A stretch of 37,997 bases of DNA, taken from contig CAZZBA010000005.1 of the NCBI GenBank assembly GCA_964652765.1, positions 1 through 37,997 of the forward strand, written 5' to 3'. This DNA comes from an uncultured Victivallales bacterium (GTDB taxonomy: Bacteria; Verrucomicrobiota; Kiritimatiellia; UBA8416). Below, one piece after another: positions 1 through 32,109 of the stretch. Below the pieces are notes generated by a model. That model did no database searches. It was not told where the DNA came from and saw nothing but the letters and a program-made list of their open reading frames with translations. Each line of letters opens with the position of its first letter. Within the stretch, counting starts at the first letter, position 1. Both the position numbers and the translations under genes were made by a program.

Positions 1-125
1 GCAAACAGTGTTTGCTTTGTGTGGCGTTTTGTGGCAAATTCGGGAGTTCAGTGGTATAAGGTGCTTTGAGGAAACGGTTCCGGTTTCCGCCAACATAGGT
101 TTACTAGATGTTTGGAGGCATGATG

Positions 126-3100
126 ATGGCTGCATTTAACGGCGTATTCCGCAAGGGGAACGGTCGCTGGTTTAGCCGGTTGATCCTGGCTGGCGCGGCA
201 CTCCTGGTCACGGGTGGCATTGGGCTGGCGGCACCGGTGCCTGGTGGCAGCGGCTGGCGCACGGCGTCCGGGGCGATGGTCTCGGATGCCGGGGACGGGG
301 CGGTCATGGTGCAGGCATTGGCCGCACCGGCAAACACCCAGCGGCTGGTTTTCCGGTTTCCCGCGGTGGCCCTGAAGCGCGGTCCGGACGGGTTGCTGGA
401 TATATCCCTGCCTTCCGCTGGACAATGGCGGCAGCCGGGCGAGCCTGTGTTGCCGATGCTCTCGACGCGGGTGGCTCTGCCACAGGGGCATGCGCTGGTT
501 TCGTTCAATGTGGTGCCATCCGATCCGCAGGAACTCGTGCTGGATGGCCCGGTGCGCCATGCGCAGCGGCCTTATCCGCTGAGCCGTCCGCAGGACCGGG
601 TGGAAACCCCTGCTTCCGCCGCTATTTACGGTGCGGACTCGCCCTATCCAGCCGTCCTCCACACGGATGGATCTGTGCAGACGAAGCGCGGTGTCGGCTT
701 TGTGGACCTGGCGCTTTTCCCGGTATCGTACCGCCCGGCCAGCGGGCGGCTGACCGCGTATGGAACGTTGACGCTTGAAGTGGTGACGCGGCCGGTCAAG
801 GATCCCGGCATTTCCCTGAATGCGGCGGATGATGGCTGGCGTGCGCGCCTGCGGTCGGCGGATGACCTGGCGGTGCTCGAGTCGCTGATCGAGAACCCGC
901 AGACACTGGCGGAGTATCAGCCCGAGGTGGCTTCTGATGACGTGGGCACGATCTCGCTGGCGGGGGCCGAGGATCCCGGCCAGCCGCCGCTTCCCTGCCG
1001 CCTCGGTAGCGTTTTCAAGCACCTCATTATCACCACCCGCAACATTCGCGACGGGATTGTGGATGCGGGTACGGCGATTGCCCAGATCTTCAGCGAGCAC
1101 GCCTACCTTTTCATCTATCCGGATCCGCAGACGGATTGGGAAATTGATATGCAGGCCGTGGCCGATGCGGGCGGGTATCCCGTGGACATCGGGGATGAAT
1201 TGGAGCAGGAGTTCGTTGACAAGAGTCTGGACGCGCTGGGCGTTGCGTCGAACGACTGGTACTACGCCTTTGAATTCAATGATCCGGCGTTGGATGGTGA
1301 CGCCAGCGGGACGCCCGACTGGATGGAGTTGCTGGTTGGGACGCAAACCAACGGCGTGCCCTTCCGCTTCACGTATGTGGCGTTCACGAACCGGCCGCTG
1401 GATGGCATCGTGGCCTTGCGTCAGGCGCAGGGGTTGTCCTCGACCGTGATCTCGATCGAGTCGATCCTGGAAACCTATCAAAGCCTGGGCATGGAAGAGG
1501 AGCAGGCATTGCGCACGTTCATCCGGGATGCCTACGACAAGTGGATCACGGAATACGTGGTGCTCGTTGGCGATGGCACGGTGATGCCGATGCGTACGCT
1601 GCGTGCTGAGGCCTCGCCCTACATCGATGATCTGCCCAGCGACCTTTATTTCCAGTGTCTGGACGGATCCTTCGATTCCGATGGCAACGGCATCTATGGC
1701 GAGCCGACCGACGGTGCCGACCGGCTGGATGGGCGCCCCGGCGAGGATATCGACCTGTATGCCGAGCTGGCGATCGGGCGGGTTGCCATATCGGATGCCA
1801 ACGCCATGTCGAACTGGGTGGCCAAGGTTGTCCGCTACGAGACCGATCGTCTCGCCGGTACCGCGCCTTACCTGCGGGGCGCCCTGCTGCTGGGCGAGTA
1901 CCTCGGTTTCGGCGGCATCTCCGAGTACGCCTCGCCGATGATGGAGGAAATCCGCCTGGGCTCGTCCGAACACGGTTACCGTACCGAGGGGTTCGCGGCG
2001 CTGGATATCCACACCAATATCGTCACCCTCTACGATGATGAACAGCCCTGGACCAAATACACGGCGGCCGCTTATATCAACAGCAACCAATTCTCGTTGC
2101 TGAACCATCTGGGTCACAGTGATTACAATTACAACATGAAATTCTACACTGAGGATGTGCAGTTCCTGCTGCGCAACGAACGCCCCGCGTTCCTCTATAC
2201 CCAGGGCTGCTGGCCGGGGGCGTTCGATAGGGACTGCATTGCCGGCGAGTTCCTTGGCGGCAGCAGCACGAACGCGCTATTTGGCGGTGTCTTCAATTCG
2301 CGTTACGGCTGGGGCGATTATGACACCACGGATGGCCCCAGTCAGCGCTACAACCGCTGGTTCTGGCATGGCTTCTTCGGAGAGCTGATCCCTGAGACCG
2401 GTGTCTTGAATCAAATGGCCCACGAGCGCAATGCCTCGCGTATCGGCGAGGAATATATGCGCTGGTGCTACTACGAGAGCAACCTGCACGGCGATCCGGC
2501 GCAGTGGCTTTACGGGATCGAACCCTCTGTCACCCTCGATCGCGAGGCCTACCGCTCCGATGCCGATGCCGTTGTCGAGGTGGTCCTGCCGCTGGCCGGC
2601 CCGACCATGCAGGAGGTGGTTGTGACGGTGACGACCTATACCGCGTTCATCGACCCGATCCTCACGACCAATGTGACGTGCTATCGCGTGGGACCGACCG
2701 ATAGGACGGCGCGGTTTGCATCGCTGGCGTTCTCGCTGGCCGATCTGGGCGCGGTCAACGGCGGCACGGTACGCGCCGAGGCGACGCTGTCTCTCGACGG
2801 GATCCCGCAGCTGTGCGACGACCGGGCGGATATCAAGGACGATCCGCCCCGGATCATGGGCCACACCCTGATGGCCGACGAGACCTATATCGATTTCTCC
2901 TTTACCACGGACAACCCGGTGACAAGCGAGGCGCGCATCGGCGACAGTATCCCGCTGACGGCGGACTGGCAGACCGTCTCCGATACCCGCGCCACCTTCC
3001 ATTCGATCCGCTTCGAGGGGCTGGAGCCTTTTACCCAGTACTTCATCGGGGTGCGCATCGAGGATGCCGCCGGTAATGTCGTCAGCATCCCCACCAACCT

Positions 3101-6100
3101 GTTCAGCGAGATCGAGGCGGAGTATTTCACGGTTGCCACGATCGGGCGCGAGACCACGCTGCGGACCGATTGGGAACACAGTGCCGACGGCTGGACCGTG
3201 ACCAACATCAATGGCGGCGTCTGCTGGGAATACGGCCAGCCTCTGACCTACGGCCCGCAGGATGATGCGCGGTGCTGGGGAACCATCCTGAACGGACGTT
3301 ACCCCGATGGTGCCAATGCGCTGCTGACCTCGCCGCCGTTCGGCGTGCGAGAGCGTCCCATGCTGGTTTTCCGTCATTGGCTGGATGTGCAATACTCTAT
3401 GGATATGCAAGGGGTCTCGCCGTCGCCTCCGCCGTTTGGTGATTATGGCAAGGTCGAGGTGCTTTCAAACGGTGTCTGGCATGATGTGACCCGCTACATT
3501 GAGGGGCGCGATGCGGCAAGCTATGTCCGCGTGGTCAACACCGATAACACGAATACGGTGATCACCGGCCAGAGCGATGGCTGGCAGGACGTGCGGGTGA
3601 ACCTGCCAGCGTCATTCGCCAATCAGCCGCTGTCCGTCCGCTTCGTGTTTGTCTCGGACCAGCAGTCGTTCGGGGCGGGCAATCCGGCTGGCTGGTATAT
3701 CGACGAGGTGACGGTCCAGGATGTCCCCGGCAACGGGCTGGGCATCTCGCAGGTCGACGTGAGCGATGTCAATGGCTTCAACGGGCTGACGCTGGTCGGT
3801 GACGCCGACGACCATGCCGAGGCGGGCGAAACGGTAGCGATCCGGCCTTACCTGTTCAATTACGGGACCACGACCTTCGGCAACCTGTCCGGGACCCTGA
3901 CCGTGCAGATCGGCGGCTACCCCGTTACGAATGCGCTGCTGCTTGACGGGGCTCCTGCCGCCGTCAGCTATACCGGACCGATTGCCCCGGCGGATCTTGT
4001 GCCGGCTAACGAGTGGATCCGCCTGCGACTCTCGCCCGGCCTGGCACCGGGAACGGTCGTGACGCTGCTGCAGTCCGTGACCAACGCGGCCGGCCTGCGG
4101 CTGGATTCGCGCTACGACCTGGTGATCAATACCGTGGTGCCGATCAGTGGTCTGGTGATCGATGCCACCACCAGCAATGCGATTGCCGCCGCCACCGTGA
4201 CGGCCGTGCGCGAGAGCTGGCAGCAGGGCAAGGTCACCGGTGCGGATGGGCGATTCGTGTTCAATGGTCTCACCGCCGGTGATGCCTACACCCTGACCGC
4301 CGGCAAGCCCGGCATGTATGCCTCGCAGACGCAGTCGGTAACGGCCCCGGCCAGCAATGTGCTTTTTGTGCTCGGCATGCCGATTGCCAGTTACGCGCCG
4401 ACCTCGCTGGCGTTCACGGTCGTCGCCGGTGGCAGCGTGGGCGACAGCGTGGTGTTCAGTAATGCCGTCGGCGCCACAGCCCCGCTGGATGTAGCGCTGG
4501 AGGAGATCGACTACCATCCGGCCGCCTCGGGATGGCTTGTCGTGACACCGCAAAGCGCACAGCTCGCCCCTGGCGCTGCCTCTACCTTTTCCGTGACAGT
4601 GGATGCCTCTTCGCTGCGTGCCGGGACCTATCTGGCCGAGCTGGTCTTCAGTACCGACGACCCGATGCTTGCCATGGTGCGGGTGCCGGTCGAGGTAACC
4701 GTCTGGCGCGAGCCGATCCTGGCTTTCGGCGGGTTATTGTTCGAGGATGACTATGCCGGGGACGGCGACGGCCAGCTGGAGGCCGGGGAAACCGCCCGCA
4801 TATGGGTTTATCTCAATAACAGCAGCGGGTTGAGCGATGTGGTGGATGTAACCGGTACGCTTAGCACCACCAACACGCATGTGACGATCAACCCGCCGCC
4901 GACGCTGCACTGGCAGTACATCGCCCCCTACAGCTCTCGCCTTTCGACCAACGGCGTCGAGGTGGTGCTCGATCTGGCCACCCCCGCAGGCGAGGTGATA
5001 GACTTTAATATCGAATTGGTCTATTTCGACGGGCTGGTCTGGCAGACCAATCAGGCACCGTTCTCCTACACCTATCTGCCCTACCACTCGGTCAGCGGCA
5101 TCGTCGAAGGGGTGGTCTGGAACGAGAAGAACAAGGCTCCCGATGGAACCGTCCCGGTCGCCGGGGCGCGGGTGACGGTAGAGGATATCCATGGCAACCT
5201 GTTCTCCAGCATGCCGACCGACACCAATGGCGTCTATGTCCTGCCGCCTCTGCCGCACGGGGATCTGTGGTTCAAGGTCTACGAGCCAGACGGCTCGCCC
5301 TACGTCCCGCCCGCCGGAACCAATATTCTCGTGAATGCCGATACGACACAGGACTTCCTGCTCAATAACTACGGCACCAATGGCCCGATCCTGCGTTTCG
5401 AAGAGGTACGGGTCTACGATTACGGCGGCGATTTCGACGGCGCGTTCGAGCCAGGCGAGACTCTCTATATCTATGCCAGTATCTACAACGAGGGTCGCAA
5501 GAATGCCACCAATGTCACCGACTTGATTGAGCTGGCCGACATGGGAGCCTACGGCCCGTTCATGCAGGTCACCCAGGCGTCCACGTTCACGACCAATACC
5601 ATCTACATGGTTCCGGAGTGGGCACGGCGATACGGCTATGAGTATTTGTATTCGGTCGATCTTTATTATTTCGAGGCGACGGTCAATGCCGATGCCGTCG
5701 AGGGGGGCAAGCAGCGCTTCTGGTTGACGACCACCGATGGCGGACGCGTCTGGCCGTTTGATTTCTCGATCACGGTGTCATCGAGCTACAGCATCGGTGG
5801 ACGGGTGACCTATGAGTTTGGCGCGTCCGCGCCTGACATCACAGTCCGGGCGGAATTGCCTGATGGAACCGTTATGACCGATATCACGGACTGGTCTGGT
5901 TACTATGATTTCGAAGGCTTGGCTCCCGGCACGACAGGGATTGTTGTGCGGGCCATCCCGCCCGGTGATTACGCCGTCGAGCCGTTGTCCTACGAGCTCG
6001 GTCCGCTGACCAATGACGTGACGGGCGTGGATTTCGTGCTCAAGGCCAGTCAACTGTTCCTGAGCCCTTCACCGTTGACGGCGACGGTCAACGAGGGGGA

Positions 6101-9100
6101 AAGAACCAATGCCTGGCTGACGATCCGGAATGCCAGCACCAATGCGACGGTCGTTGACCTCAGCGTGGTCTATACGCGTGGCGACGACGATCTCCTGCCG
6201 CCGCCGGAGCACGATCCGCTGTCGCTGATCCTGACGCCGACGACGTCCTGGAACGAACTGGATGCGGATGACTATGTGCCGGGTGAGCTGGAAGTGCGCT
6301 TTGCCGACGGGACCGGCTGGATCGAGCGCGAGGCCATCCTCAAGCGCCATGGCCTGCGGGCGACCCTGCACCTGAAGCTCGTGCCTGCCTGCCTGGCGGT
6401 ACCGGTCGATACGACGGCGCTTGGCGATGCAAAACCCCTGGCGCTGGCACCCCTGGCGCAGGCGCTGCAGGCCGAGCCAGGCGTGCTATACGTCCAGCCT
6501 GCCGCCCGCATGGCGCAGCAGGCGCTGCCGAACGATCCGCTATTCGACAAGCTCTACGGCTTGCACAACACCCGCCAGACCGGCGGTACGCTCGGTGCCG
6601 ATATCAATGTGACGAATCTCTGGGACCGCACGACCGGCTCGCGCGACATCATCGTGGCCGTCTGCGATACCGGGTTCGACAAGACGCATCCCGACCTGCT
6701 TCCCAATTTGTGGAGCAATCCGGGCGAGCTGGCCGGAGATTCCAATTTTGATGGCTATCCGGGTGTCCGGGGGGTTGACGACGACGGGGACGCGACCAAC
6801 CAGCTTTACCATTATGACGAGGTCAGCGGCACGACCGTAGGCCCGGAACTCGTGCACCCGCTCTTTGATTCCGAAATGTGGAAGGATAACCGCACCCGCA
6901 CAGTCGTTCCCGGCGTGCCCGGCACCAACCGGTGGGTTAATGGTGCGAACAGCATTCCGGACTATTTCGAGATGTACCTCAACGGCGAGCTGTCGTTTAC
7001 CGATCTGGTTGCCAGCCGACCGGCCTACTTCGGCGACAGCAACGGCAATGGCATCCCGAATGTCTTCGAGGACATACAAGGGCCCCGCCCCGGCACCCCG
7101 CCCGACGGCATCCCCGATATCTTCGCCGACGAGGATGGCGACGGCATCATCAACGAGACCGGTATCGACTTCCGCGACGAGGATGTCATGCTCGGGGACT
7201 ACAACAACAACGGCCAGCCCCTGATCAAGCAGGTGACAGCTATTCTTCCATGGATCAACTCGACGAGTTACCGGGTCGTGCTGGAACAGTGGAACGGCCT
7301 GGGCCTCGCGGCCGATGACGACGACGAGAACGGTTATGCCGATGATCTGAACGGCTGGAACTTCTATCACGGTGACGGTGACGTGACCGACGGGGACGTA
7401 CTAAGTGCCCACGGGACACACGTCGCCGGCACGATCGGTGCCGTCGGCAGCAACGGCGTCGGTGTCGCCGGCGTCAACTGGAACGTCAGCATCATGCCGC
7501 TGGCCCTGGTGTATCGCGCGGAGGATCCGTACACCGAATCACCGTTCACCAGCAGTGCCCGGATCGCCCAGGCGATCGAGTACGCCATTACCCATGGGGC
7601 TCGCGTCAGCAACCACAGTTGGGGCGGCGCCGCCGCTTCCGGCGTGCTTTACGAGATCATGAAGCTGGCCGAGCGCGACTACAATCACCTTTTCGTGATT
7701 GCCGCCGGCAACTCGGCCAATGATGTCGACAACCGGAAGTTCTATCCGGCCTACTTCAGCACGGTGCTTAACAACGTCATCACCGTGGCGGCTGCCGATG
7801 ATCATGATCAGTTGGCCGAGTTCAGCAACTACGGGCTCAACAGTGTGCAACTGGCCGCGCCGGGCGTGGATATCTACAGCACCTGGTCGAGCCGGTCTGT
7901 CCAGATCCTCTTGATGTACCCGGAGACGGAAGCGTATGTGGATGAAATGCTGGCGTCGGGTGAGCTGATCCTGCAGGACGGGGCCTACTACCGCCGCATG
8001 AGCGGTACCTCCATGGCGGCCCCGCATGTGGCCGGGGCGGCGGCACTGCTCTGGTCGCTGAGCCCGGATGCTAATTACAGTGTGATCAAGCGTGCGCTGC
8101 TGGACGGTGTGCGCCTCGAGTCCAATCTCGATGGCTGGGTCAAGACCGACGGGTTACTCGATCTCGGGCGGGCAGCCCAGATAATGGGTACCGATTGGCT
8201 GAGATTCAGCACGAACCAGATCCCGGTCGGCGCCGGTGCCTCGGTGCAGGTTGAGGTGCTATTCAACCCTGATCTGGATACACGGCCGGGCTTCTTCGAG
8301 GCCGAGATCGTGGGCGATTCGGATGTCGGTCGCGACCGCATACCGGTGACCCTGACCGTCCTGTCTGGCGGATCGCTGGAGGTGGATGGCGTCCGCATTA
8401 CCGCGGATACCGATAACGACGGATTTGCCGAACCCGGCGAGACGGTTTCGTTCGTGATCGACATTTACAACCCGGGCAACACCACGTTCATCAATCTCGC
8501 TGGAACCCTGGCGGCGGTGACCCCCGGGGCGGGGGTAACGACGACGACGGCCGGTTGGGACTACCTGTATGGTGGCCAGAGTGGTGAATCGCTGACGGCG
8601 TTCACGGTCACGATCCCTGCCAGCGCACCAGCCGAGACGCTGTTTGAATTGACGCTGACGGCGGATGATGTCGCCGCGCAGATCTTGGGTGTCTCCCTGG
8701 CGACGCAGACCCGATACGCTATTGCTGGCCGCGTGGTGACGACGGGCGGCAGCGGCATCCAAGGCGCCATGGTCGAGTACCGCGGTGCGTCGGGTGGCTA
8801 TGTGCTCAGTGGCACCAACGGCGTCTTCATTCTCTCGGGCCTGGTGGCGGGTGATTACCTGCTGCGGGCGATTCCGACCGGCTATGCCCGGTCGGCGGAT
8901 CTGCCTGTGACCCTCGCCACCAACGATCTGACCGGTATCAAACTTGAAGTCGGTGCCCCGGTAATCGGCCTCTCGGCGACCAATATACAGGCGGTCCTGG
9001 TCAACGAGATGGACTGGATTGCCTCGGTTGCGCTCAGCAATACGGCTGCCGACGCATTCGGTTACGCGCTGGATGTCATGCCGCGCCGCCGCATCGGGCT

Positions 9101-11840
9101 GTTTGCCGATGGAACCAGCCTGGGCGTGCTGGTCGCCCCGCTCGAGCGCATGGGCTTCGAGGTGGACTACTACACCAACAACTACGCGACGGTGCACGAG
9201 ATTGATCCGGCCACCGCCATCGAGGAAATTGTCCAGGATGTGCGCTACACGGATGATGATGCCAGGGTGTTCCCCTATGACATGGTGATTGCCGACCTGA
9301 CCGGGCCACATGGCGGCGGCCGCGTCTTCAGTGAGGCGGAGGCGGATGTCTTCTCGCGCTACCTCGATCTCGGCGGAGCGTTGCTCTTCACCGGCGGCAA
9401 CTCGCTTAATCGCCCGGATAATGCCGGGATCGCATCACTGTGTGGCGTGGATCTCGGCTATGTCTCCACCAGTCGTGTGAGCGAGGCGCAGGCGGTAACC
9501 AACTGGAATGGGGTCTTTGTGACTCTTGACGCTGGCGATCGCCTGTCGGTCAGCAATTTCGTCCACGACCTCGCGGCCCCGACCAACGCGGCCACGGAGG
9601 TGCTCTTCACTGCCGGGGCGGCCTCGAAGCTCACGCGTCTGGCGGGGGTGGGAGCCAAGGGTCAGGGGCTGGTCATGCTCTGGGGCGGGAATCCGGGGGC
9701 ATGCGACTGGAGTAGCGAAGGCGCGTGGCTGGATGTGTTGCGCGATATCCTGCACCAGCGGTTCATGCAGCCGATGGCCACCCAGACGAGCGTTCCCTGG
9801 CTGACGGCTACGCCGGTGACCAACAGCGTTGCTGCCGGCACGGTTAGTCTTTCCGTGACGCTATCTTCCGGTTACCTGGCGGCGGACACCTACCGGGCCG
9901 TGATCCTGCTGCGCGGGCTGGACCGCGACGAGGAGGTCCTGGCGATCCCGGTTTCACTGACGATCTCGCCCTACAATCTGCGGGCCTATACCAGCACGGG
10001 TGTGATGGACACCCAGGGTCTTCCGCTTTCCGGCGACGGTAGCAACGATTCCCCGCTCTACCAGGTGATCTACGCCGGGACCAACGGTGTGGCCGATGCG
10101 CCGGATACCGCTACCGGCTCGCCGGGTGGCGATGACCAGTTGCTGGCGGCGATCCCCTCCGGTCAGGCGTTCGGACGCTTCGGGGATGGCGAGGGTGTCG
10201 TTCCCGATACCGGCATTTTCGACCGGCACTTCATCAATACGATCCCGTCCGATGCGGTCAATCCGCGGGTGTACGTGCGTGCCTGGGACGGGGCGTCCTT
10301 CGCCTCCTCGCTGACCTATGGCGATTCCGGCCTCAGCAATCTGGTTTTCAGCACTGCGGCGGCGGTCGATTTCGGCACCTGGACGTTGAACGAGTCGATC
10401 AGTCTGGCGTTGGATTCCAACGGTGATTCGCTACCGGATGCCTGGCTGTTGCAATACCGTCCGGATATAGATCCGCTGGCGGCGAACGGTCCGCTCGAGA
10501 CGGATTATGATGCCACGGTCATCGCGACGATCAATGCAGCGGGTGGAGCCACACCGCAACCCTATCGCGTGCGGTTCTCAATGCCGGGTGCGGCGTTCAT
10601 GTTCGTACTCGACAAGGCCAACAACCGCCTGATCTCGATCCCGACGAACTCGCCGGCGACACAGATTCGGTACGGCAGCGCGGGTACGGCCACCAACCAG
10701 TTCGCCCAGCCCGAAGGGTTGGCGGTCGATCCGCGGGCCGGGCATTACCGACTTGCCGTGGCGGACACGGCCAATAACCGTATCCAGTTGTTCACGTACA
10801 ACCCGACCAATGGCGTTATCAGCTTTGAGCGGTCGGTCGGATCCCTCGGTAGCGGAGTTGGACAGTTCAAGAGTCCCGGTGGCGTGGCGTTCGACAACAC
10901 CGGGCGTGTCTTCGTGGCTGATACGGGTAACAACCGGGTCGCGATTTTCCGGGTCTCCGACGCGGTCTGGTACGGGTCCTTCACCGGTACGGGTGCCTAC
11001 GTCCTAAACGCACCGCGCGGGATCGCCTTTGACACGCACTTCAGTGATGGCGGCGTCTGGGTCTGCGATACGGGCAACGATCGCATGTCGCTGTATTTCG
11101 ACAACGGCACCTTCCGTCGCAGCTTCGGCATGGCTGGGACGGTAGACGGCCGGTTCAACGATCCGGTGGATGTCGCCATCTGGCAGGTGGGTACGCATCG
11201 CCGCCTCGTGGTGGCTGACAAGGTCAACAACCGGATGCAGGTCTTCAACGCCGATGGGTCGCATCTGGCCTCCGTCGGGACCGGTGGCGGACTGCTCGGC
11301 CAGTTGTTGCTGCCGCATGGCGTGGCACCGCAGAACAACAGTGCCAACCTTTTCATCGCCGACACCGGCAATGCGCGGATCCAGCGCTTCGCGCTGACCT
11401 TGGATGCCGATGGCGATGGCATGGACGATTTCTGGGAGGATCTGAATGGTCTGGATTCAACCATTGATGATGCCTACGGGGATTTGGATAGCGATGGGCT
11501 TTCCAACCTGGCCGAATACCTGATCGGCACCGAACCGGACAATGCGGATACCAATGGCGATGGCATAACGGACGGCGACGCTGTGAACGGTATGTTGAAT
11601 CCGTTGTCCTTTGCACCATTCCAGATTGAATCGCTGGCTCCGGCCCCGCTCGGTGGTGGGGTGGTCATCGAATGGCAATCCGTGGCTGGCGAGGTTTACC
11701 TGATTGAGACAAATGGTTCGCTGATGACGGGTGTCTGGGGGGTCTACACCAATGTCGTCGGAACCGGGGGTACCAGTTCGGTGGAAATGCCGCTGCCTGG
11801 GAGTTCGTTCCTGTATTTCCGGATGCAGAGGATACCGTAG
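126..11840 (+). CDS. Giant (~3,900 aa) secreted multidomain protease: signal peptide, C25 propeptide, gingipain-like peptidase C25, FN3-like and jelly-roll domains, 4x (GDxDG..E(A/P)GET beta-sandwich + carboxypeptidase-regulatory-like) modules, BACON-like domains, subtilisin S8, GATase-like fold, NHL repeats, DxDxDG repeats, C-terminal beta domain
   Basis: Uninterrupted ORF 108..11840. GGAGG at 114-118 lies 7 nt before ATG 126 (ATGs at 108, 120 and 123 are alternatives). Basic then hydrophobic N-terminus. C25 motifs: YVVLVGD, SDLYF, AIGRVA, NHLGHS, QGC, LHGDP. S8 motifs: VAVCDTG, HGTHVAGTIG, AAGN, GTSMAAPHVAG. NHL motifs: F..P.G.AVD/VADT.NNR repeated. Confidence 0.93.
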   Translation: MAAFNGVFRKGNGRWFSRLILAGAALLVTGGIGLAAPVPGGSGWRTASGAMVSDAGDGAVMVQALAAPANTQRLVFRFPAVALKRGPDGLLDISLPSAGQWRQPGEPVLPMLSTRVALPQGHALVSFNVVPSDPQELVLDGPVRHAQRPYPLSRPQDRVETPASAAIYGADSPYPAVLHTDGSVQTKRGVGFVDLALFPVSYRPASGRLTAYGTLTLEVVTRPVKDPGISLNAADDGWRARLRSADDLAVLESLIENPQTLAEYQPEVASDDVGTISLAGAEDPGQPPLPCRLGSVFKHLIITTRNIRDGIVDAGTAIAQIFSEHAYLFIYPDPQTDWEIDMQAVADAGGYPVDIGDELEQEFVDKSLDALGVASNDWYYAFEFNDPALDGDASGTPDWMELLVGTQTNGVPFRFTYVAFTNRPLDGIVALRQAQGLSSTVISIESILETYQSLGMEEEQALRTFIRDAYDKWITEYVVLVGDGTVMPMRTLRAEASPYIDDLPSDLYFQCLDGSFDSDGNGIYGEPTDGADRLDGRPGEDIDLYAELAIGRVAISDANAMSNWVAKVVRYETDRLAGTAPYLRGALLLGEYLGFGGISEYASPMMEEIRLGSSEHGYRTEGFAALDIHTNIVTLYDDEQPWTKYTAAAYINSNQFSLLNHLGHSDYNYNMKFYTEDVQFLLRNERPAFLYTQGCWPGAFDRDCIAGEFLGGSSTNALFGGVFNSRYGWGDYDTTDGPSQRYNRWFWHGFFGELIPETGVLNQMAHERNASRIGEEYMRWCYYESNLHGDPAQWLYGIEPSVTLDREAYRSDADAVVEVVLPLAGPTMQEVVVTVTTYTAFIDPILTTNVTCYRVGPTDRTARFASLAFSLADLGAVNGGTVRAEATLSLDGIPQLCDDRADIKDDPPRIMGHTLMADETYIDFSFTTDNPVTSEARIGDSIPLTADWQTVSDTRATFHSIRFEGLEPFTQYFIGVRIEDAAGNVVSIPTNLFSEIEAEYFTVATIGRETTLRTDWEHSADGWTVTNINGGVCWEYGQPLTYGPQDDARCWGTILNGRYPDGANALLTSPPFGVRERPMLVFRHWLDVQYSMDMQGVSPSPPPFGDYGKVEVLSNGVWHDVTRYIEGRDAASYVRVVNTDNTNTVITGQSDGWQDVRVNLPASFANQPLSVRFVFVSDQQSFGAGNPAGWYIDEVTVQDVPGNGLGISQVDVSDVNGFNGLTLVGDADDHAEAGETVAIRPYLFNYGTTTFGNLSGTLTVQIGGYPVTNALLLDGAPAAVSYTGPIAPADLVPANEWIRLRLSPGLAPGTVVTLLQSVTNAAGLRLDSRYDLVINTVVPISGLVIDATTSNAIAAATVTAVRESWQQGKVTGADGRFVFNGLTAGDAYTLTAGKPGMYASQTQSVTAPASNVLFVLGMPIASYAPTSLAFTVVAGGSVGDSVVFSNAVGATAPLDVALEEIDYHPAASGWLVVTPQSAQLAPGAASTFSVTVDASSLRAGTYLAELVFSTDDPMLAMVRVPVEVTVWREPILAFGGLLFEDDYAGDGDGQLEAGETARIWVYLNNSSGLSDVVDVTGTLSTTNTHVTINPPPTLHWQYIAPYSSRLSTNGVEVVLDLATPAGEVIDFNIELVYFDGLVWQTNQAPFSYTYLPYHSVSGIVEGVVWNEKNKAPDGTVPVAGARVTVEDIHGNLFSSMPTDTNGVYVLPPLPHGDLWFKVYEPDGSPYVPPAGTNILVNADTTQDFLLNNYGTNGPILRFEEVRVYDYGGDFDGAFEPGETLYIYASIYNEGRKNATNVTDLIELADMGAYGPFMQVTQASTFTTNTIYMVPEWARRYGYEYLYSVDLYYFEATVNADAVEGGKQRFWLTTTDGGRVWPFDFSITVSSSYSIGGRVTYEFGASAPDITVRAELPDGTVMTDITDWSGYYDFEGLAPGTTGIVVRAIPPGDYAVEPLSYELGPLTNDVTGVDFVLKASQLFLSPSPLTATVNEGERTNAWLTIRNASTNATVVDLSVVYTRGDDDLLPPPEHDPLSLILTPTTSWNELDADDYVPGELEVRFADGTGWIEREAILKRHGLRATLHLKLVPACLAVPVDTTALGDAKPLALAPLAQALQAEPGVLYVQPAARMAQQALPNDPLFDKLYGLHNTRQTGGTLGADINVTNLWDRTTGSRDIIVAVCDTGFDKTHPDLLPNLWSNPGELAGDSNFDGYPGVRGVDDDGDATNQLYHYDEVSGTTVGPELVHPLFDSEMWKDNRTRTVVPGVPGTNRWVNGANSIPDYFEMYLNGELSFTDLVASRPAYFGDSNGNGIPNVFEDIQGPRPGTPPDGIPDIFADEDGDGIINETGIDFRDEDVMLGDYNNNGQPLIKQVTAILPWINSTSYRVVLEQWNGLGLAADDDDENGYADDLNGWNFYHGDGDVTDGDVLSAHGTHVAGTIGAVGSNGVGVAGVNWNVSIMPLALVYRAEDPYTESPFTSSARIAQAIEYAITHGARVSNHSWGGAAASGVLYEIMKLAERDYNHLFVIAAGNSANDVDNRKFYPAYFSTVLNNVITVAAADDHDQLAEFSNYGLNSVQLAAPGVDIYSTWSSRSVQILLMYPETEAYVDEMLASGELILQDGAYYRRMSGTSMAAPHVAGAAALLWSLSPDANYSVIKRALLDGVRLESNLDGWVKTDGLLDLGRAAQIMGTDWLRFSTNQIPVGAGASVQVEVLFNPDLDTRPGFFEAEIVGDSDVGRDRIPVTLTVLSGGSLEVDGVRITADTDNDGFAEPGETVSFVIDIYNPGNTTFINLAGTLAAVTPGAGVTTTTAGWDYLYGGQSGESLTAFTVTIPASAPAETLFELTLTADDVAAQILGVSLATQTRYAIAGRVVTTGGSGIQGAMVEYRGASGGYVLSGTNGVFILSGLVAGDYLLRAIPTGYARSADLPVTLATNDLTGIKLEVGAPVIGLSATNIQAVLVNEMDWIASVALSNTAADAFGYALDVMPRRRIGLFADGTSLGVLVAPLERMGFEVDYYTNNYATVHEIDPATAIEEIVQDVRYTDDDARVFPYDMVIADLTGPHGGGRVFSEAEADVFSRYLDLGGALLFTGGNSLNRPDNAGIASLCGVDLGYVSTSRVSEAQAVTNWNGVFVTLDAGDRLSVSNFVHDLAAPTNAATEVLFTAGAASKLTRLAGVGAKGQGLVMLWGGNPGACDWSSEGAWLDVLRDILHQRFMQPMATQTSVPWLTATPVTNSVAAGTVSLSVTLSSGYLAADTYRAVILLRGLDRDEEVLAIPVSLTISPYNLRAYTSTGVMDTQGLPLSGDGSNDSPLYQVIYAGTNGVADAPDTATGSPGGDDQLLAAIPSGQAFGRFGDGEGVVPDTGIFDRHFINTIPSDAVNPRVYVRAWDGASFASSLTYGDSGLSNLVFSTAAAVDFGTWTLNESISLALDSNGDSLPDAWLLQYRPDIDPLAANGPLETDYDATVIATINAAGGATPQPYRVRFSMPGAAFMFVLDKANNRLISIPTNSPATQIRYGSAGTATNQFAQPEGLAVDPRAGHYRLAVADTANNRIQLFTYNPTNGVISFERSVGSLGSGVGQFKSPGGVAFDNTGRVFVADTGNNRVAIFRVSDAVWYGSFTGTGAYVLNAPRGIAFDTHFSDGGVWVCDTGNDRMSLYFDNGTFRRSFGMAGTVDGRFNDPVDVAIWQVGTHRRLVVADKVNNRMQVFNADGSHLASVGTGGGLLGQLLLPHGVAPQNNSANLFIADTGNARIQRFALTLDADGDGMDDFWEDLNGLDSTIDDAYGDLDSDGLSNLAEYLIGTEPDNADTNGDGITDGDAVNGMLNPLSFAPFQIESLAPAPLGGGVVIEWQSVAGEVYLIETNGSLMTGVWGVYTNVVGTGGTSSVEMPLPGSSFLYFRMQRIP
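1020..2505 (+). other. Peptidase C25 (gingipain-like, clan CD) catalytic domain within the first giant CDS
   Basis: Putative catalytic His (codon 2115, NHLGHS) and Cys (codon 2208, YTQGCWPG) are 31 aa apart, close to the His-Cys spacing of RgpB. The domain ends in the conserved L.GDP. Boundaries are approximate. Confidence 0.85.
6270..8170 (+). other. Subtilisin-like S8 domain with I9-like propeptide within the first giant CDS
   Basis: Triad: Asp codon 6666, His 7410, Ser 8010. Oxyanion Asn in AAGN. Propeptide YVPGELEVRF...YVQP precedes PNDP. Confidence 0.92.
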
Positions 11841-11852
11841 GGGAAATGTGAC

Positions 11853-12689
11853 ATGAAACAAGGCACTAAGATATTTACAGGGGCGGTGGCTGTTGGCGTC
11901 GCCGCATCCTGCGTCTGGCATCTGGCTGCCCTGAAGACGAAAACGGAGCAGGAACCTGTCGAGGTGCCCGCCGAGGCACCGAAGGCACCCCTGCCCGAGG
12001 ATATCGTTGGCGAGCGCATGGCCGACACGAACTATGTGGCGGCACTCAAGGTGCTGATTGATGGGCGTGGCGAGGTGATTGCCGAGTCCCAGGCGGTGCG
12101 TGCACAGATGGCGGACCTGCTGACGGCGGCGGCAGAAAAACTGGCCGGAGCTTCCAGCTCCGAGGCAGATGAGAAGGTGGCGGGAGCTTCCAGCTCCCCC
12201 GCGGAGCAGCAGGATCCGGAGCGGGATGTTTCTGGCACGACCGAACGGGAGCTAGAAACTCCCGCCACTATGGCTGCGACTAATGCCCCATTGGTTTCCA
12301 CGAATACCGCCCTTAAGGCCGGTACGCAACTGTCCGCGCCGGATGTACCCCCCGCCGCCCGATTTGACGGGATCGATCCCGCTCTCCTGGCGCAAGTGCG
12401 CCAGCAGCCGGAATGGGCGGTGCTTGAAACACGCCTGGACGCCTTGGCGGCAAAGCAGCAGGACATCCAGCTTCGCACCCGGGCCCTGATCCGTGAACGG
12501 ATGGAGGTGCAATACGCTGCAAGGGCCGCCGAGAACCCCGGACCGGTCACCCGTTCCCCGGCTGGTATCATCAAGCCGATGACCAACGCACCCGATTTTG
12601 ACGCGGTGAAACCGACCATCATCACCAATGTGCCGTCCGGTGGCGTGAAGCTGCCGCCCCGGCCGGACCGGAAGCCGATCACGCCATGA
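11853..12689 (+). CDS. Hypothetical 278-aa protein with N-terminal membrane anchor/signal, predicted helical segments and Pro-rich tail
   Basis: Starts 12 nt after the upstream stop, with a GGGGA SD-like sequence. Hydrophobic segment IFTGAVAVGVAASCVWHLAAL. Normal GC-rich codon pattern. No family recognised. Confidence 0.8.
   Translation: MKQGTKIFTGAVAVGVAASCVWHLAALKTKTEQEPVEVPAEAPKAPLPEDIVGERMADTNYVAALKVLIDGRGEVIAESQAVRAQMADLLTAAAEKLAGASSSEADEKVAGASSSPAEQQDPERDVSGTTERELETPATMAATNAPLVSTNTALKAGTQLSAPDVPPAARFDGIDPALLAQVRQQPEWAVLETRLDALAAKQQDIQLRTRALIRERMEVQYAARAAENPGPVTRSPAGIIKPMTNAPDFDAVKPTIITNVPSGGVKLPPRPDRKPITP
12141..12268. repeat. REP-like palindromes (GTGG-type inverted doublet plus a third copy) inside the 278-aa CDS
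   Basis: GTGGCGGGAGCTTCCAGCTCCC (12177-12198) matches the reverse complement of 12247-12268 at 20/22. The left arm holds the hairpin GGGAGCT-TCC-AGCTCCC. A related copy lies at 12141-12162. Confidence 0.8.
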
Positions 12690-12893: not shown

Positions 12894-12935
12894 TCGAAGT
12901 TCAGGGATATGGGCCCGATACGGGGAGAGAATAAT

Positions 12936-15900
12936 ATGAATACCATGAAACAAACCGGTGTGATCAATAAGATGGTTGGCTCGGCCTGGCTGCTGGCGGC
13001 CATGCTCGGCCTGGCCGTGCAGGTGCAGGCGGCGGACCCGATACCGCAGAGCATAACCGTCACGTCGACGCCCGCCAATGGCACGCATTATGCCTATGGA
13101 GAATCCATGCTCGTCAGGGTCCGGTTCGACCGTGCCATAGCCGTTGCCAATGGGGTTGTCGGCACCAGTCCCTATGTCAGCCTGACTATTTCCCCGACGG
13201 ATGCGACCAGCAACCGAGCCACATATCTCTTTGAAGCGGGCACCGATCTATTCCTCGAATATGTCGTTCAGGCTGGCGATTTCGCTTCCCCGCTGGCCAC
13301 GTCCGGTACGCTGCCGTTACGCGTTACGGGTACCACGGCGATCCAGGATGCGGCTTTTCCAGCGGATACCTGGAATACCAGTGATAACGTGCCGACCGCC
13401 GGGACCAATGCCCTGTCGGCAGCGGGGGCGGTGATCCGTACGGTCAGCATCACACCGGCAACGGCCGTCCTCCTGGAAGGGCAGACGCAGCTTTACACGA
13501 TCAACCGCGGCGGGCCGCGAGCCATTGCGCTGAACGTGAGCCTGACGTCCAGCCTGCCGAGTGTGGGCGCGGTTCCGGCCACGGTGACCATTCCCGCAGC
13601 TGGCGACCAGATCCAGTTCTCGGTGACGGCACTCTCGGTCGGTGTATCGACGATCACGGCCGACGCCTACCCGCTGCTCGGGGCGGCGGCGAATGAAACC
13701 AGCACGCTGACCGTGAATGCCGGTCCGGCGCCAACATTCACGATCCTGCCGCCCGTCACGCTTTATGAGGGCGTTAACTTTGACCCGACCACCTATCCGT
13801 ATCAAGGCAGCGGCACCATCCGGCTTTCGCGGGCGCCGATCGCACCGATCACGGTGACCCTGACCAGTTCAAACCCGGCGCGGCTGGGTTTCCTTGGCAA
13901 TGTCAATACCGTTACGTTCCTGGCTGGCCAGACCGAAAAGACGTTCCAGCTGGAAGGGTTGGGCGGAAATGCGGCAGTGCAGATCACGGGTACGGCCACC
14001 GCCCCGTATGTCTCCGATGGCGTGGCCGCCTCGGTCTCGATACTCAACGTGCCGCCTGTGATCAACAGCCCGGCCGATCCCTGGACGATTGCCAATAACT
14101 CCGAGGGTCGCACGGTGACATTTTCCTGGAGCGGCTCGGATGTCGCGGCCGATATTCCAAATCTGCAGGCCTATTACGATTTCGGTGACGGTAGCAATAC
14201 CGGCTGGCTTAACGGTGACGCCGGCACGACGACGCATGTCTACAACCTCGCGGGGACGTTCGGGGTGACAATCCGTTACCGCGACCAGGATGGCGGAGAG
14301 GTGACGCGCACGTCGGTGATTACGATTGATCCCGCTACCGAGATCCTCTTGACTGAGGTTGTCCGTGGCGACCCCGCAGATCCTCAGATACCACCCGGAT
14401 ATAAGGGTCTGCCCGGCCTGGGTCAGGGCGGGATTAACGATACGCTGGTCGAGACGCTGAAAGTGGCCGTGCCGGGTCCGCAAACCAACGTATTCACCAT
14501 CAAGTACAGCCCCACGCAGCCTTCCGTCGTGTTGGTTGCCAGTCCCTTTACCTCTGATATCGTGACGGCTGGCGCCACCAATATATACGACAGCTTCTTC
14601 CACGTCTGGATTGGTGAAGGATTCGTCTCGCCGGGTGCCATTGTGCCGATCGCCAATCCCACTGCGCGACTTGAGCTCAATGGCCAGGACCGCGATATCC
14701 AGGGCGTTTTCTCACGTGAATTCGCCCCGCGCGACAACTATGGCGATATCGATAACGATGCCTTGCCCGACCAGTGGGAGGAACTCTGGTGGCCGGAGCA
14801 ATTGATGTTCGAAACGCCCAACCGCGCGGCTAATGATGACGCCGACTTCCTGCCGCGCGGGGCCAATGCCAACATGGCCTATCCGGCGGGCGGTGGCAAC
14901 TATACACCCGATGGTGCGGGATTCGGCAATGTTTACGAAGTCCGCGGTCTTGATATTGACTTGAATGCCGCCAATTCGGATACCAATCCGGCTGGCGTCA
15001 TCCTGGACGAACCTCAGTATACGAACGATACGCGCGAGTTCTTCGGCACCGACCCGACGGTGGATGATACCGATGGCGACGGCTTCTCCGACGGCTGGGA
15101 ATACTATTTCTGGGTGAATGCCGAGTTCCGCGGTATTACCGGTGTCAGCTACAACCCTGGATCGCCAATGCAGGACGGTACCATTATTCCCTCCACCTTC
15201 ATCGAGGCGGCGTTTCATCCGCTGGTGGCGGGCAGTCAAGGCGCGGATCCCGATGGTGATGGGCTTTCCAATATCGAGGAATACGCGCTCGGCACCGACC
15301 CGATCAACTGGGACAGCGATGGCGATACCATGGCCGATGGCTGGGAAGTTTTCCGCAATCTCAATCCGCATGGCGATGATGCGGGTGGCAATCCCGATGG
15401 CGACTATATGGCGGCACTGGGGTATGATGCGAGTGTGCCGCGTCCGGCAGGCCCCCTGCTGTTCAGTGTGCATTACTATGTTTACGACCTGCTTCAGTAC
15501 GACCCCCGCACGGGCTGGTCAGGAACCTACACGCTACGTTCCCGTGCCGGTGCTGCCTTGGCTCCTGACACGACCGCGATGCTGAATATCGATGAATATG
15601 CCTTGATGCAGTTCTGGATCAACGAAAATGTGGTGGGTGCTGTCACCCCGGGAATGTGGGGCCGTTATTCCACTAATCCTCAGAGCAACGATACCGATGG
15701 TGACGGGGCGACTGACGGCTGGGAACTGTATGTCCATTTTGATCCGTCGCTTAACCAGGCTGGTCTCTTATGGGATGTCGACATGGATGGGTCCTTCCTG
15801 CAGAACGAATTCGCCGGTGTGGAGAGTTCTCCGAATTCAGGGGCGAGTCTGACGATCGGCTCGCAAACCACCGCGGGCACCTCAACCAACGCCACCGGCG

Positions 15901-18900
15901 TCGTGACCACGAACTCGACCACCACGGTGGTGGTAGTGGACTCCACCCCCTTGACGAACATCAACGAGCCCTGGTGGAACAAGTTCTGGCCGTCTGACCC
16001 GAACAATGCCGATACAGATGGTGACTTCGTTGGCGATGCCACCGAGCGGGCGGCTTTCCCCGTGGGCCCGTTCCTGTACACTGCTCCGGCGGAATGGAAT
16101 CAAGACTATATCCGTGGGGCGCGGGCCGGTGGCGGCCTCAACCCCTGTAGTGTCGATACCGACATGGACTTCATTCCCGACTTCTGGGAGGTCCAGTACC
16201 GCTACGACCGGGTGCAGTTCATGAATCCGGATGGCAGTACCTATCCTGTCGGTGGCATGGACGGATCGATCTTCGACTCGCGCAGCGGCCTGACCGATCT
16301 GACCGGCGCCGAGGAGAACTATGACTACGATAGTGATGGCCTCAACAACTATCAGGAATATTATGTCAACGCCATGTGGCACTTCAACTACGACAAGTGG
16401 GTTTCCGGTCTCGGAAACGGTGCCTATCCGCCTGCCGGCTTGATGCAGGGCGCGCCGCTCCATTGGGACTGGGCGATTGCGGCCAACTACTGGGAGCAAC
16501 CGATTTACGAGGGAATGTCTCCACCCTTCCATACCCCGTTTGTTTTTATCCTGCCCGAACCCCGTCCGTTCGTCCCGGCCTATGCCTCGGCCGATCCGAG
16601 TATGTGGGACACGGATTACGACGGGATGGATGATCATTATGAGATGTACTACGCCCTGAATCCGCTCTGGAGCGAGCAGCTCGATGCGATTGCCAAGGGT
16701 GCGCCTGCCACGGTGATGGATATCCGGGTACAGCCCTGGGCGGGAGGCGCGTCGCTGTCCGATCCGGACCAGGACGGTATTCCCAACTGGGAAGAGGCAA
16801 TCTTCCCGAGCCGCCCCATGCCCGAGAACCTCAATTCAAGTCCCTCGCCCCACTGGGTGACGGATACCTCGTACGAGCAGAGCTGGGTCAATCTCTATTA
16901 CCAGCCTCTCGGTCACGCCTGGTACTGGATGGAGGGTCTTGAGGGTGATCCGGTATACCCCTATCCGGCCGTCGTTTCACTGGCGGCATTCCCGCCGACC
17001 TATGTCTATTCCTTCGCCAACGACGAGGGCTACGATACCGATAACGACAACATCCCCGACCGGATGGAGACCACGGGCGCGGACAATGTCGGCCTGACCG
17101 ACCTGACGGACTTCGATAGTCCGCGCCTGCGCAAGGCTCTGTATCTCGACGGTGACAGTGCGGCGCGTACCAAGTTCGGCGTATCGCACGAGCTGAACCA
17201 GTTGCGGAGCTGGACGGTCGAATTGTGGGTGCGTTCGGAAGAGCCCGTCTCGCCGACCGGCGAACGGCAGATCATCATCGAGCGTCCGTTGCGGGGGCAG
17301 CCGACCGATCCGATGCCCGCACCGGAACTGGTGCGCCGTACGTTCCGTGTCGGCCTGGAAGCCGACGGCCGTCCGTTTGCGGAATACAATAACATGGGCA
17401 ACGAACTGCTTTCCGAGAACGTAACCGGGACGGGCTGGACGCTGCAGACTAACGTCTGGTACCATATCGCGGCGGTCCTCGATGGCGACAACAGCCAGTT
17501 CTCGCTGTACGTCAATGGCCTGCTCGCCGCCCGCAAGGGAACCGCCCTGATCCCGGCCACCGGTGTCATTGATGGCAACCCGCCGCTGGTCCTGAGTGCC
17601 CCCATTGTGATCGGTGCTGCCGACCGCAATCCCAATGGACGGGTCCAGAATCCGGTGCCCGGATCGGTGACGCCGCCGGATCTGCATTCGCACTTCAAGG
17701 GCTGGGTGGATGAGATCCGTGTCTGGCACGGTGGGCGTACACAGGAGGAGGTAAATGCCTCCCGAATGCAGCGCTTCACGCTGGATGATGTGAAGCACTC
17801 CATGACGAACTATGCCGCCGCCCAGGCGATACTTGAAGATCTGAATCCGCCGGATATGGGATACCAGATCTACAGTAATCTCCCGCCGGTGGTGTTGTAT
17901 CACTATGCGTTTGATAATCTGCCCGATCCCAAGCATGACCCGATCGTGCCGCAGCATTTCGAGCTGCTCAACGGACGCCCCAGCGACGGGTCGTATGTCG
18001 GTGTTCCCTGGTGGTGGCAGGCTCCTGACCGCAGCCGGGTCTACAACGATTACCGGTTCATCCAGTGGGCGGAAAATACCGCCTCGCACGTGCCAGCCTT
18101 GCCGTTGGTTAACCGCTTCGGTAATGTGGTAGACTACCAGTACGGGGTCGTTCAGTCCTCGCCATTCTGGACATCGCCGCCCTGGATGACCAATACGGCA
18201 CCGAACGCGACATTCGTGTTCCCCAACAAGACCTACCCCTCGCAGAACGATTACTACAGCGGCTTGTCGGCCCTGTCAGAGGGCGGGCGCAGCACGACCG
18301 GCCTGTTGCCGCTCTGGTATGCCAAGGCCGACATGGACGTGCCGCTCTGGGATAACGAGACTCCGGGCACGGCGTCCTACGACAGCAATGGCGACGGCAT
18401 TGCCGACTGGTGGGCACTGAGCCACGGCTTCGACCCGTTCAGCACGAATTCGATCGCCGACGGGGATGCCGACAGCGACGGCATCAGCAACTACTGGGAA
18501 TACCGCATCGGTTCCGATCCCAACGCCATGTATTCGCTCGATCCGACCGGAGACCGTACGGATGCGGAATATGATGCCGATGGCGACGGGTTGTCCAATC
18601 TGGACGAAACCACGGTGTTCATGACCGATCCGTCGAATCCGGATACGGATGATGACGGCTATAACGACGGGAATGAGGTCAAGGGTTGGGAGCCGGCCAG
18701 CGCGGATGAGTACGGCATAGGCCCTCAGGTGTCTTCGCCTGTGGAATCGCTGAGTCCGGAGGTGCGCCGCAGTTTCGTGGCGGCCGGGCGTAATATCGAA
18801 GTGCCGAAGAGCGACCGCTTCGCCTTCCTCGGCATCGAGGAACTCATCCTGCCGGGACCGACCGTCGATATCACCGCCCCGGCCGATGGCGCGAACATCG

Positions 18901-30742: not shown

Positions 30743-30860
30743 GCCGAGCACAAGGAATTGAGAGCCACAGAAAAAGAAATTGTAAAGCATATGTAAACTG
30801 CGGTATTGTTGAAGAACTGCGGTCTAAACGTTGAGACGAACGATGAAGGAGAATGGATCC

Positions 30861-31971: not shown

Positions 31972-32109
31972 TATCGGTATGCAAGTCGATAAGTGTGTGC
32001 TAATATAGCACCGGACAACCCTGCCTGTCGAATTCCCAGGGAAAAGGGGTCCACGGGCGGGACGGGCGTGTCCGTCCGCACCGCAGACGTTCCGCGATCG
32101 AGGTGTCAC

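Follow-up and report, generated by a model that had tools for sequence, protein, structure and literature searches.

A terminal TSP3 and Fn3-like module on very large exported proteins of a Victivallales bacterium, tentatively read as a docking or retention module

Dockerin and SLH modules are terminal, non-catalytic parts of diverse exoenzymes that stand at either protein end and are sometimes repeated. Dockerins depend on calcium and fold as an EF-hand-like helical pair, and SLH modules are likewise helical. Classical Fn3 modules are mostly internal linkers. The C-terminal domains (CTDs) used in type IX secretion (T9SS) are described as 3+4, seven-stranded Ig-like sandwiches that are removed by PorU (PMC11285876, PMC4804311). 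The present work concerns a window of 37,997 nucleotides, the whole stretch of DNA analysed, from an uncultured Victivallales bacterium. The window is contig C5 of a genome referred to here as G000, whose assembly comprises 4.66 Mb in 635 contigs and is 82.8% complete. Three very large plus-strand open reading frames (ORFs) of this window, at 108-11840, 12909-29363 and 31993-35676, share a C-terminal module, hereafter called the tail.

The tail consists of one or two TSP3-type loops followed by a beta-sandwich of 72-80 amino acids, with an FYR strand lying 2-7 residues before the stop codon in the three window proteins. It is shown below to be a homologous TSP3 plus Fn3-like end-module of Sec-exported proteins that is uncurated, lineage-restricted and very common. 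As to its role, its architecture leads us to favour, tentatively and with less than even confidence, a non-catalytic terminal docking or retention module and not a cleaved export signal.

Several described systems invite comparison. Like the T9SS type A CTD (TIGR04183 / PF18962), the tail is a small beta-sandwich that closes the chain of many unrelated Sec-exported cargos, which number in the tens per genome. It differs in that the module also forms tandem arrays or adjoins the signal peptide, in that none of the tails matches the T9SS model, and in its Fn3-like character with TSP3 loops ahead. With the dockerin-cohesin and SLH systems it shares the placement of a terminal non-catalytic module on diverse exoenzymes, whereas the tail is a beta-sandwich without a Pfam dockerin or SLH match, and we know of no cohesin-like receptor for it. 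The Fn3 modules of polysaccharide-degrading enzymes (Bacillus circulans chitinase A1, 1K85; ChiW, 5GZT) have the same core pattern of W, Y and Y.FRV, but the Pfam fn3 model misses 14/14 tails and the last (G) strand seems to be absent from the tail. Finally, the resemblance to TSP3 (PF18884), CglD, MtsD and the Amuc_1099 family covers the linker only, the sandwich being without counterpart and tail 3 having lost its D.DGDG loops. No description of the module was found in the literature, as represented by listings and the openings of abstracts.

Anatomy and position of the tail module

The three tail-bearing genes of the window are as follows.

108-11840, plus strand: gene 1, 3910 amino acids
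12909-29363, plus strand: gene 2, 5484 amino acids
31993-35676, plus strand: gene 3, open frame of 1227 amino acids

Gene 1 encodes a C25 peptidase domain (residues 432-798), four CarboxypepD_reg domains, an S8 subtilase (residues 2179-2666) and NHL repeats. Gene 2 encodes PKD and seven domains of LamG type, along with internal TSP3 repeats and an S8 subtilase whose prodomain is fervidolysin-like; gene 3 encodes five CHB_HEX_C_1/Fn3_assoc domains (chitobiase/hexosaminidase C-terminal-type) and GLUG-like repeats. Each of the three proteins finishes with the tail. All three N-termini are signal-peptide-like, with basic residues followed by a hydrophobic run; in gene 3, the start is likely the ATG 39 codons into the frame, ahead of the signal-peptide-like stretch.

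That the three large exported proteins end alike had been proposed by the first-pass annotation, and their C-termini do align. Pairwise BLASTP of the last 200 amino acids gave E-values of 2e-4, 1e-4 and 0.03, which are weak in themselves and are backed by the profile. A hidden Markov model (HMM) built from the three tails only retrieved further ORFs among the 49,785 six-frame ORFs of the genome. After iteration, it yielded 29 domain matches in 18 ORFs. Fourteen of these matches extend to the end of the model, and every one of these complete copies finishes 3-10 residues ahead of the stop. The remaining 15 are incomplete; they go no further than model position 87 of 94, and it is the linker motif that drives them. 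The shared tail of the three large proteins is thereby confirmed as real, far beyond chance. Furthermore, the three large ORFs are the sole HMM matches on contig C5, so that the lipoprotein at 30831-31874, a 278-amino-acid protein and an AAA ATPase lack the module, in keeping with the earlier claim that the lipoprotein and cytoplasmic proteins are without it.

Export of the tail-bearing proteins is suggested by their N-termini, as had been expected. Among the 14 tail ORFs, three could not be assessed since the N-terminus lies off the contig or is masked; a signal-peptide-like start was found in 9 of the 11 assessable cases, the two without being on contigs C426 and C22. These two signal-less frames (G000:C426:1016-1618 and G000:C22:701-2794) may be fragments of longer genes, produced by frameshift or assembly error. 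The cargos are unrelated to one another, comprising C25, S8, LamG, glycoside hydrolases, beta-helix, cadherin, PKD and CotH/LTD, and their Pfam families are typically extracellular. At the other end of the size range, some tail proteins hold little beyond a signal peptide and the module, namely a 213-amino-acid ORF on contig C7 and the 170-amino-acid database protein P0153. A near-length search with the small C7 protein returned two matches, the protein itself and a 135-amino-acid JGI hypothetical protein.

Aligned tails resolve into three parts. The first, which is optional, is a D.DGDG.PD.WE..YFG unit, and the second is a D.DGDG..N..EY.AGTDP unit; both correspond to bacterial TSP3 repeats. 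The third is the sandwich, with the pattern l.W.S..Gr.Y.l..s.nL...f......i..t........D......FYRv.v. The corresponding features of the window are given below.

11403-11564, plus strand: tail 1 linker, with TSP3-type calcium-loop motifs (putative) DADGDG (11403-11420) and DLDSDG (11481-11498), and EYLIGTEP (11514-11537)
11616-11831, plus strand: tail 1 Fn3-like beta-sandwich (predicted), profile i-E 1.1e-24, ending LYFRMQ; stop codon 11838-11840
28947-29084, plus strand: tail 2 linker, two TSP3-type units, DQNSNG..IPDEWELYYFG followed by DADGDG..EYINGSDP
29100-29339, plus strand: tail 2 Fn3-like beta-sandwich (predicted), profile i-E 2.2e-22, ending RFYRVVVV, then 7 residues and the stop
35359-35430, plus strand: tail 3 linker, degenerate, with NWVIRFYG and EYVADTDP kept and the D.DGDG calcium-loop motifs (putative) lost
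35443-35667, plus strand: tail 3 Fn3-like beta-sandwich (predicted), profile i-E 6.3e-22, ending TFYRISVE, then 2 residues and the stop

An additional DTNGDG loop in the tail 1 linker (11547-11564) is missing from tails 2 and 3. By analogy with TSP3 repeats, the TSP3-type loops of the tail are putative calcium-binding sites. PF18884 (TSP3_bac) matches 4/14 tails, with a best E-value of 3.4e-6; positions 93-153 of the NCBIfam Amuc_1099_fam model also match the tail linker, and the CglD and MtsD models match it weakly. The EY..GTDP element, which had been taken as a signature of the tail, corresponds to the final part of a bacterial TSP3 repeat and occurs many times inside the 5484-amino-acid protein. 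Because the TSP3 motif recurs within gene 2, where TSP3_bac matches are internal, the element is not specific to the tail. The boundaries first drawn around the domain of protein 1, 11490-11840, do contain the tail 1 sandwich but take in the second TSP3 loop of that protein as well. Two matches within the open frame of gene 2, at residues 934-1030 and 2877-2967, were considered as sandwiches and rejected, being TSP3 runs and not complete copies.

The tail is not uniform. Two sequence subtypes of it, ATPP.N.YTD and GTG, coexist in one genome. In a cadherin-type subfamily, which includes an ORF on contig C390 of the source genome, the sandwich directly follows a cadherin domain without a TSP3 linker.

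With regard to the fold, AlphaFold2 gave a pLDDT of 75 for 105 residues with 14 sequences and of 82 for 150 residues with 31 sequences; in the latter model, the TSP3 part forms two short helices and the beta-sandwich comes after them, and the two short helices predicted in the tail 2 linker have a pLDDT of 88-92. Both models resemble an Fn3 domain of a cytokine receptor (6nmy_D) most closely, with Z scores of 8.3 and 8.8, the latter at an rmsd of 2.3 A across 77 residues; a Z near 8 is a moderate structural match only. Further Fn3 domains come next. The Fn3-like part of ChiW (5GZT) follows at Z 7.3 with 20% identity, and the best Foldseek E-value for the tail model is 2.6e-3. None of the 50 structural matches listed is a T9SS CTD structure, which does not by itself exclude kinship. 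At the sequence level, the best PDB match of the tail profile is the Fn3 of chitinase A1 (1K85), with an E-value of 0.0066, and classical Fn3 repeats (P0012) are among its other matches. The sandwich is thus predicted to have an Fn3-like fold.

The curated libraries searched do not contain this sandwich. Pfam and NCBIfam gave no cover of it in the three 200-amino-acid tails at E<=1, in the 14 tails at E<=10, or in six domain-rich database proteins, and the Pfam fn3 model (PF00041) was likewise without a match at E<=10. Dockerin (PF00404) and SLH gave no match in Pfam scans of the tails. In the comparison proposed at the outset, 0/14 tails matched Por_Secre_tail (TIGR04183), FlgD_ig, PEP-CTERM or other curated sorting models at E<=10. 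One separate PEP-CTERM match was seen elsewhere in the genome, on contig C316. In addition, the three tails have no hydrophobic or charged C-terminal stretch; their last element is a beta strand, after which 2-7 polar or Pro residues follow. They are therefore not sortase- or exosortase-type signals (PEP-CTERM, LPXTG or GlyGly-CTERM), in which a short motif is followed by a hydrophobic helix and a basic end.

The sandwich chain stops directly after the strand corresponding to Fn3 Y.FRV, and tandem copies are joined by a short Pro-rich linker only. Because, in the alignment ranges, the chain ends after the FYRV strand, and because the linkers in arrays are this short, the classical last (G) strand of Fn3 seems to be missing from the tail sandwich. 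That a partner might supply the missing strand (donor strand) is speculation. A homodimer prediction with two tail copies scored 0.00, a value with no bearing either way on pairing.

Distribution and architecture in other genomes

A profile of the 14 tails, linker included, was searched against 1.84 billion cluster representatives and matched 41,005 of them at E<=1e-3, a number that falls to 13,281 at E<=1e-10 and to 103 at E<=1e-30. Looser thresholds take in TSP3-only proteins, and already among the 150 best matches 21 are without a complete sandwich. Within the same order, the module is present in 21/21 genomes searched, with 4-51 matches each. In an even sample of the phylum, 61/151 genomes were positive at E<=1e-8, at most 33 candidates having been scored per genome with a profile derived from one genome. 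The class of the window was mostly positive in this sample, another family reached 14/15, and others gave 0/24, 0/14 and 1/15. The module-negative families may include false negatives, because the profile comes from a single genome, no more than 33 candidates per genome were scored, and tail proteins occur in Luteolibacter and Chthoniobacterales.

The module was found in 0/101 genomes of the phylum of a Phycisphaerae metagenome-assembled genome (MAG) and in 1/101 of the phylum of a 'Planctomycetia' genome (G171), where the genomes measure just 0.9-2.7 Mb and are therefore an unfair sample of Planctomycetota. Nor was it found in five genomes chosen by hand, one each from Planctomycetia, Phycisphaerae, Ignavibacteriaceae and Bradyrhizobium plus a Verrucomicrobia MAG. 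Both the protein atlas and the names of the sources indicate Verrucomicrobiota (Verrucomicrobiae, Chthoniobacterales, Luteolibacter), together with one 'Candidatus Acidoferrum' record. The scope originally suggested, a signal of the Planctomycetes-Verrucomicrobia-Chlamydiae lineage, was too broad, since 0/101 in the phylum of the Phycisphaerae MAG and 61/151 in the window's own phylum leave a signal of that breadth unsupported.

The terminal position of the module extends to these other genomes, in agreement with the expectation that HMM matches would be preferentially C-terminal. Taking the best match per genome in the first 20 other genomes of the phylum sample, 19/20 end 0-4 residues before the stop; in the one exception, the sandwich runs into a second TSP3 module. 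In a set of 119 proteins collected through a word index, 112 have a complete sandwich, 111 of them as a single copy, and 100/112 end within 10 residues of the module. Eight of 11 exceptions carry DUF1800 (PF08811), with the module away from the C-terminus. These eight proteins, of 1200-1900 amino acids with TSP3 plus sandwich, are P0182, P0186, P0193, P0216, P0228, P0230, P0232 and P0236. In the four whose N-termini were read (P0182, P0193, P0228 and P0230), the module is the first domain behind a signal-peptide-like start, at about residues 60-160.

The 150 top-scoring proteins, a list that is biased toward repeats, give a complementary picture. A complete copy is present in 129, of which 108 end 20 residues or fewer from it, nine more end in a diverged FYR-type strand missed by the filter, and 12 do not end with the module. 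Multiple copies (2-8) were found in 100 of the same 129. Direct reading showed arrays in which 6, 8 and 11 sandwiches follow one another with no TSP3 linkers, as well as double and triple whole modules.

Possible roles of the module

Bacteria of this lineage attach the module to Sec-exported proteins of many unrelated kinds. In the mechanism that we tentatively prefer, it would, after export, keep such an enzyme or adhesin on the surface of the producer by binding an envelope component or receptor protein. The TSP3 loops would form a stiff joint between the cargo and this foot. The mode of action would thus be like that of a dockerin or SLH-type anchor, and unlike that of a cleaved T9SS-type export signal. 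Docking is put first because the module is repeated in many proteins, is found at either end of the mature chain, can dispense with its TSP3 part, and has no feature of motif-plus-helix sorting signals. Repetition is typical of avidity-based binding modules. Furthermore, the DUF1800 copies behind the signal peptide argue that its function needs no free C-terminus.

Several points weigh against a docking or retention role. It is from architecture alone that such a role is read. The chain stops 0-10 residues after the last strand in a near-absolute manner, which is stricter than in usual binding domains and is what would be expected of a terminal recognition signal. The conserved W, Y, L and FYR residues mark no ligand site, since they occupy usual Fn3 core positions. 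In addition, the tandem arrays would be accounted for just as well if the module had a passive structural role, and a signal-peptide heuristic applied to database proteins, a crude test, gave 81/169 against 477/2013 control ORFs.

It is also possible, though not likely, that Verrucomicrobiota-type bacteria have an undescribed system for surface sorting or docking, in which the module serves as the address tag. A dedicated outer-membrane or surface receptor would then read the exposed last strand, for example by strand pairing at the place of the G strand, so that dozens of enzymes and adhesins would be displayed per cell, in a counterpart to T9SS CTDs or to the cohesin-dockerin pair.

A rather doubtful alternative, for which T9SS CTDs are the model, is that the module acts as a C-terminal sorting signal specific to the lineage. 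Dedicated outer-membrane machinery would recognise this signal, and might cleave it off and attach the cargo to the surface. This explanation is kept alive because the chain stops unusually strictly just after the last strand, and it accords with the strictness of the terminal position in all three sets (14/14 in the genome, 19/20 in other genomes and 100/112 among database proteins). The cargos are diverse and signal-peptide-bearing, the beta-sandwich is close in size to a T9SS CTD, and the patchy spread within the phylum fits a lineage-specific machine. The 4-51 matches per genome in 21 relatives are similar to T9SS cargo counts, and the coexistence of the ATPP.N.YTD and GTG subtypes in one genome resembles that of type A and type B CTDs. 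A dedicated sorting signal is, however, hard to reconcile with the tandem arrays and with copies adjoining the signal peptide, and no tail matches TIGR04183 or curated sorting models. SprA, PorV and Por_Secre_tail were without a match in the 82.8%-complete genome, a result with weak controls, in that the SprA and tail controls matched no control genome and the PorV control matched B. thetaiotaomicron only, below the cut-off. No candidate machinery was identified. The T9SS analogy with which the first-pass annotation began is only partly supported: it holds for terminal position and diverse exported cargo, and does not extend to the tandem arrays or the DUF1800 copies behind the signal peptide.

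The same annotation had named the C25 enzyme, described as adjacent, as a candidate processor of the signal. It is in fact a domain of the tail-bearing 3910-amino-acid protein itself, and it scores 25 bits against the PorU model, the cut-off of which is 420. C25 was found in 13/21 relatives (7/12 among good-quality genomes) and hence not in eight of the 21 that are tail-positive. C25 and the tail share one open frame in at least seven ORFs (G000:C5, G006:C18, G007:C76, G008:C12, G010:C49, G010:C64 and G012:C285). Because C25 sits in tail-bearing frames and is present in 13/21 relatives against 21/21 for the tail, C25 peptidases are a recurrent cargo and not a plausible universal processor, which also counts against a dedicated sorting signal.

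Two side observations concern these peptidases. In gene 1, a C25 cysteine peptidase and an S8 subtilase are combined in one exported protein of 3910 amino acids. Tail-bearing C25 proteins recur in relatives, for example as ORFs of about 2480 amino acids in G007, G010 and G012.

We consider it similarly doubtful that the module is a passive structural element with no part in targeting or binding, acting as a cap or spacer of Fn3 type at the chain end or as a nucleus on which long exported proteins fold. The fold and the conserved residues are generic for Fn3, and the arrays of 6-11 copies look like stalks. The absence of the module from many genomes of the phylum shows that the export pathway itself can do without it. 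Against a purely passive element, there is no reason for a spacer to stand at the extreme end in about 90% of proteins, and such an element would be unexpected as the end of small proteins made of a signal peptide and the module, such as the 213-amino-acid C7 ORF and the 170-amino-acid P0153. An improbable last option is a substrate-binding domain of carbohydrate-binding module (CBM) type, tethering enzymes to polysaccharide or particles and not to the producer cell: many cargos are glycoside hydrolases or lectin-like, and CBM21, CBM56 and amylase N-domains are among the mid-ranking structural matches (Z 5.8-6.0), but proteases, cadherin-type and DUF1800 proteins bear the same module and the CBM matches are no better than those to unrelated Ig/Fn3 domains.

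Neighbouring features and significance

One further feature of the window lies upstream of gene 3.

30831-31874, plus strand: lipoprotein P0155, lipobox STGC, no tail and no family match

This lipoprotein is conserved in 15/21 relatives, and its place between tail-bearing genes is kept in G005:C261, G001:C25 and G009:C2. To the tail genes it is a neighbour and no more. Between genes 1 and 2, at 11853-12689, lies the 278-amino-acid protein, which begins with a hydrophobic anchor and has a body rich in Ala, Glu and Pro. It is an orphan with no family match, found in 1/21 same-order genomes and in 0/20 relatives searched.

The segment 29362-30757 holds two small toxin-antitoxin-like pairs, the one formed by a 76-amino-acid ORF of no named family and HicA_toxin, the other by DUF4160 and DUF2442. 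Both pairs are bounded by repeat copies of 80-130 nucleotides with internal inverted arms, and the GC content falls to about 0.54. The segment looks like a run of gene cassettes between attC-like sites.

Directly before the tail of gene 3, at 35074-35330, a GLUG-like domain with the pattern GGLIGQ...AYWDTQTSG...GWDF..VW has no Pfam match. Its tblastn relatives come from distant lineages, namely Bradyrhizobium, Paenibacillus, and Thermoplasmata and Methanomassiliicoccales MAGs. A locus search with the last 200 amino acids of gene 3 found relatives of this GLUG-like domain only (query residues 1-95) and is uninformative on the tail.

Verrucomicrobiota-type bacteria are major degraders of complex polysaccharides, and we know of no account of how they export and retain their very large enzymes and adhesins. 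The module marks their exported, surface-related proteome better than current annotation does, and an HMM of it would improve that annotation at once. If it proves to be a true docking or sorting tag, it would represent a new route of surface display and would give a practical handle by which proteins could be displayed on such bacteria.

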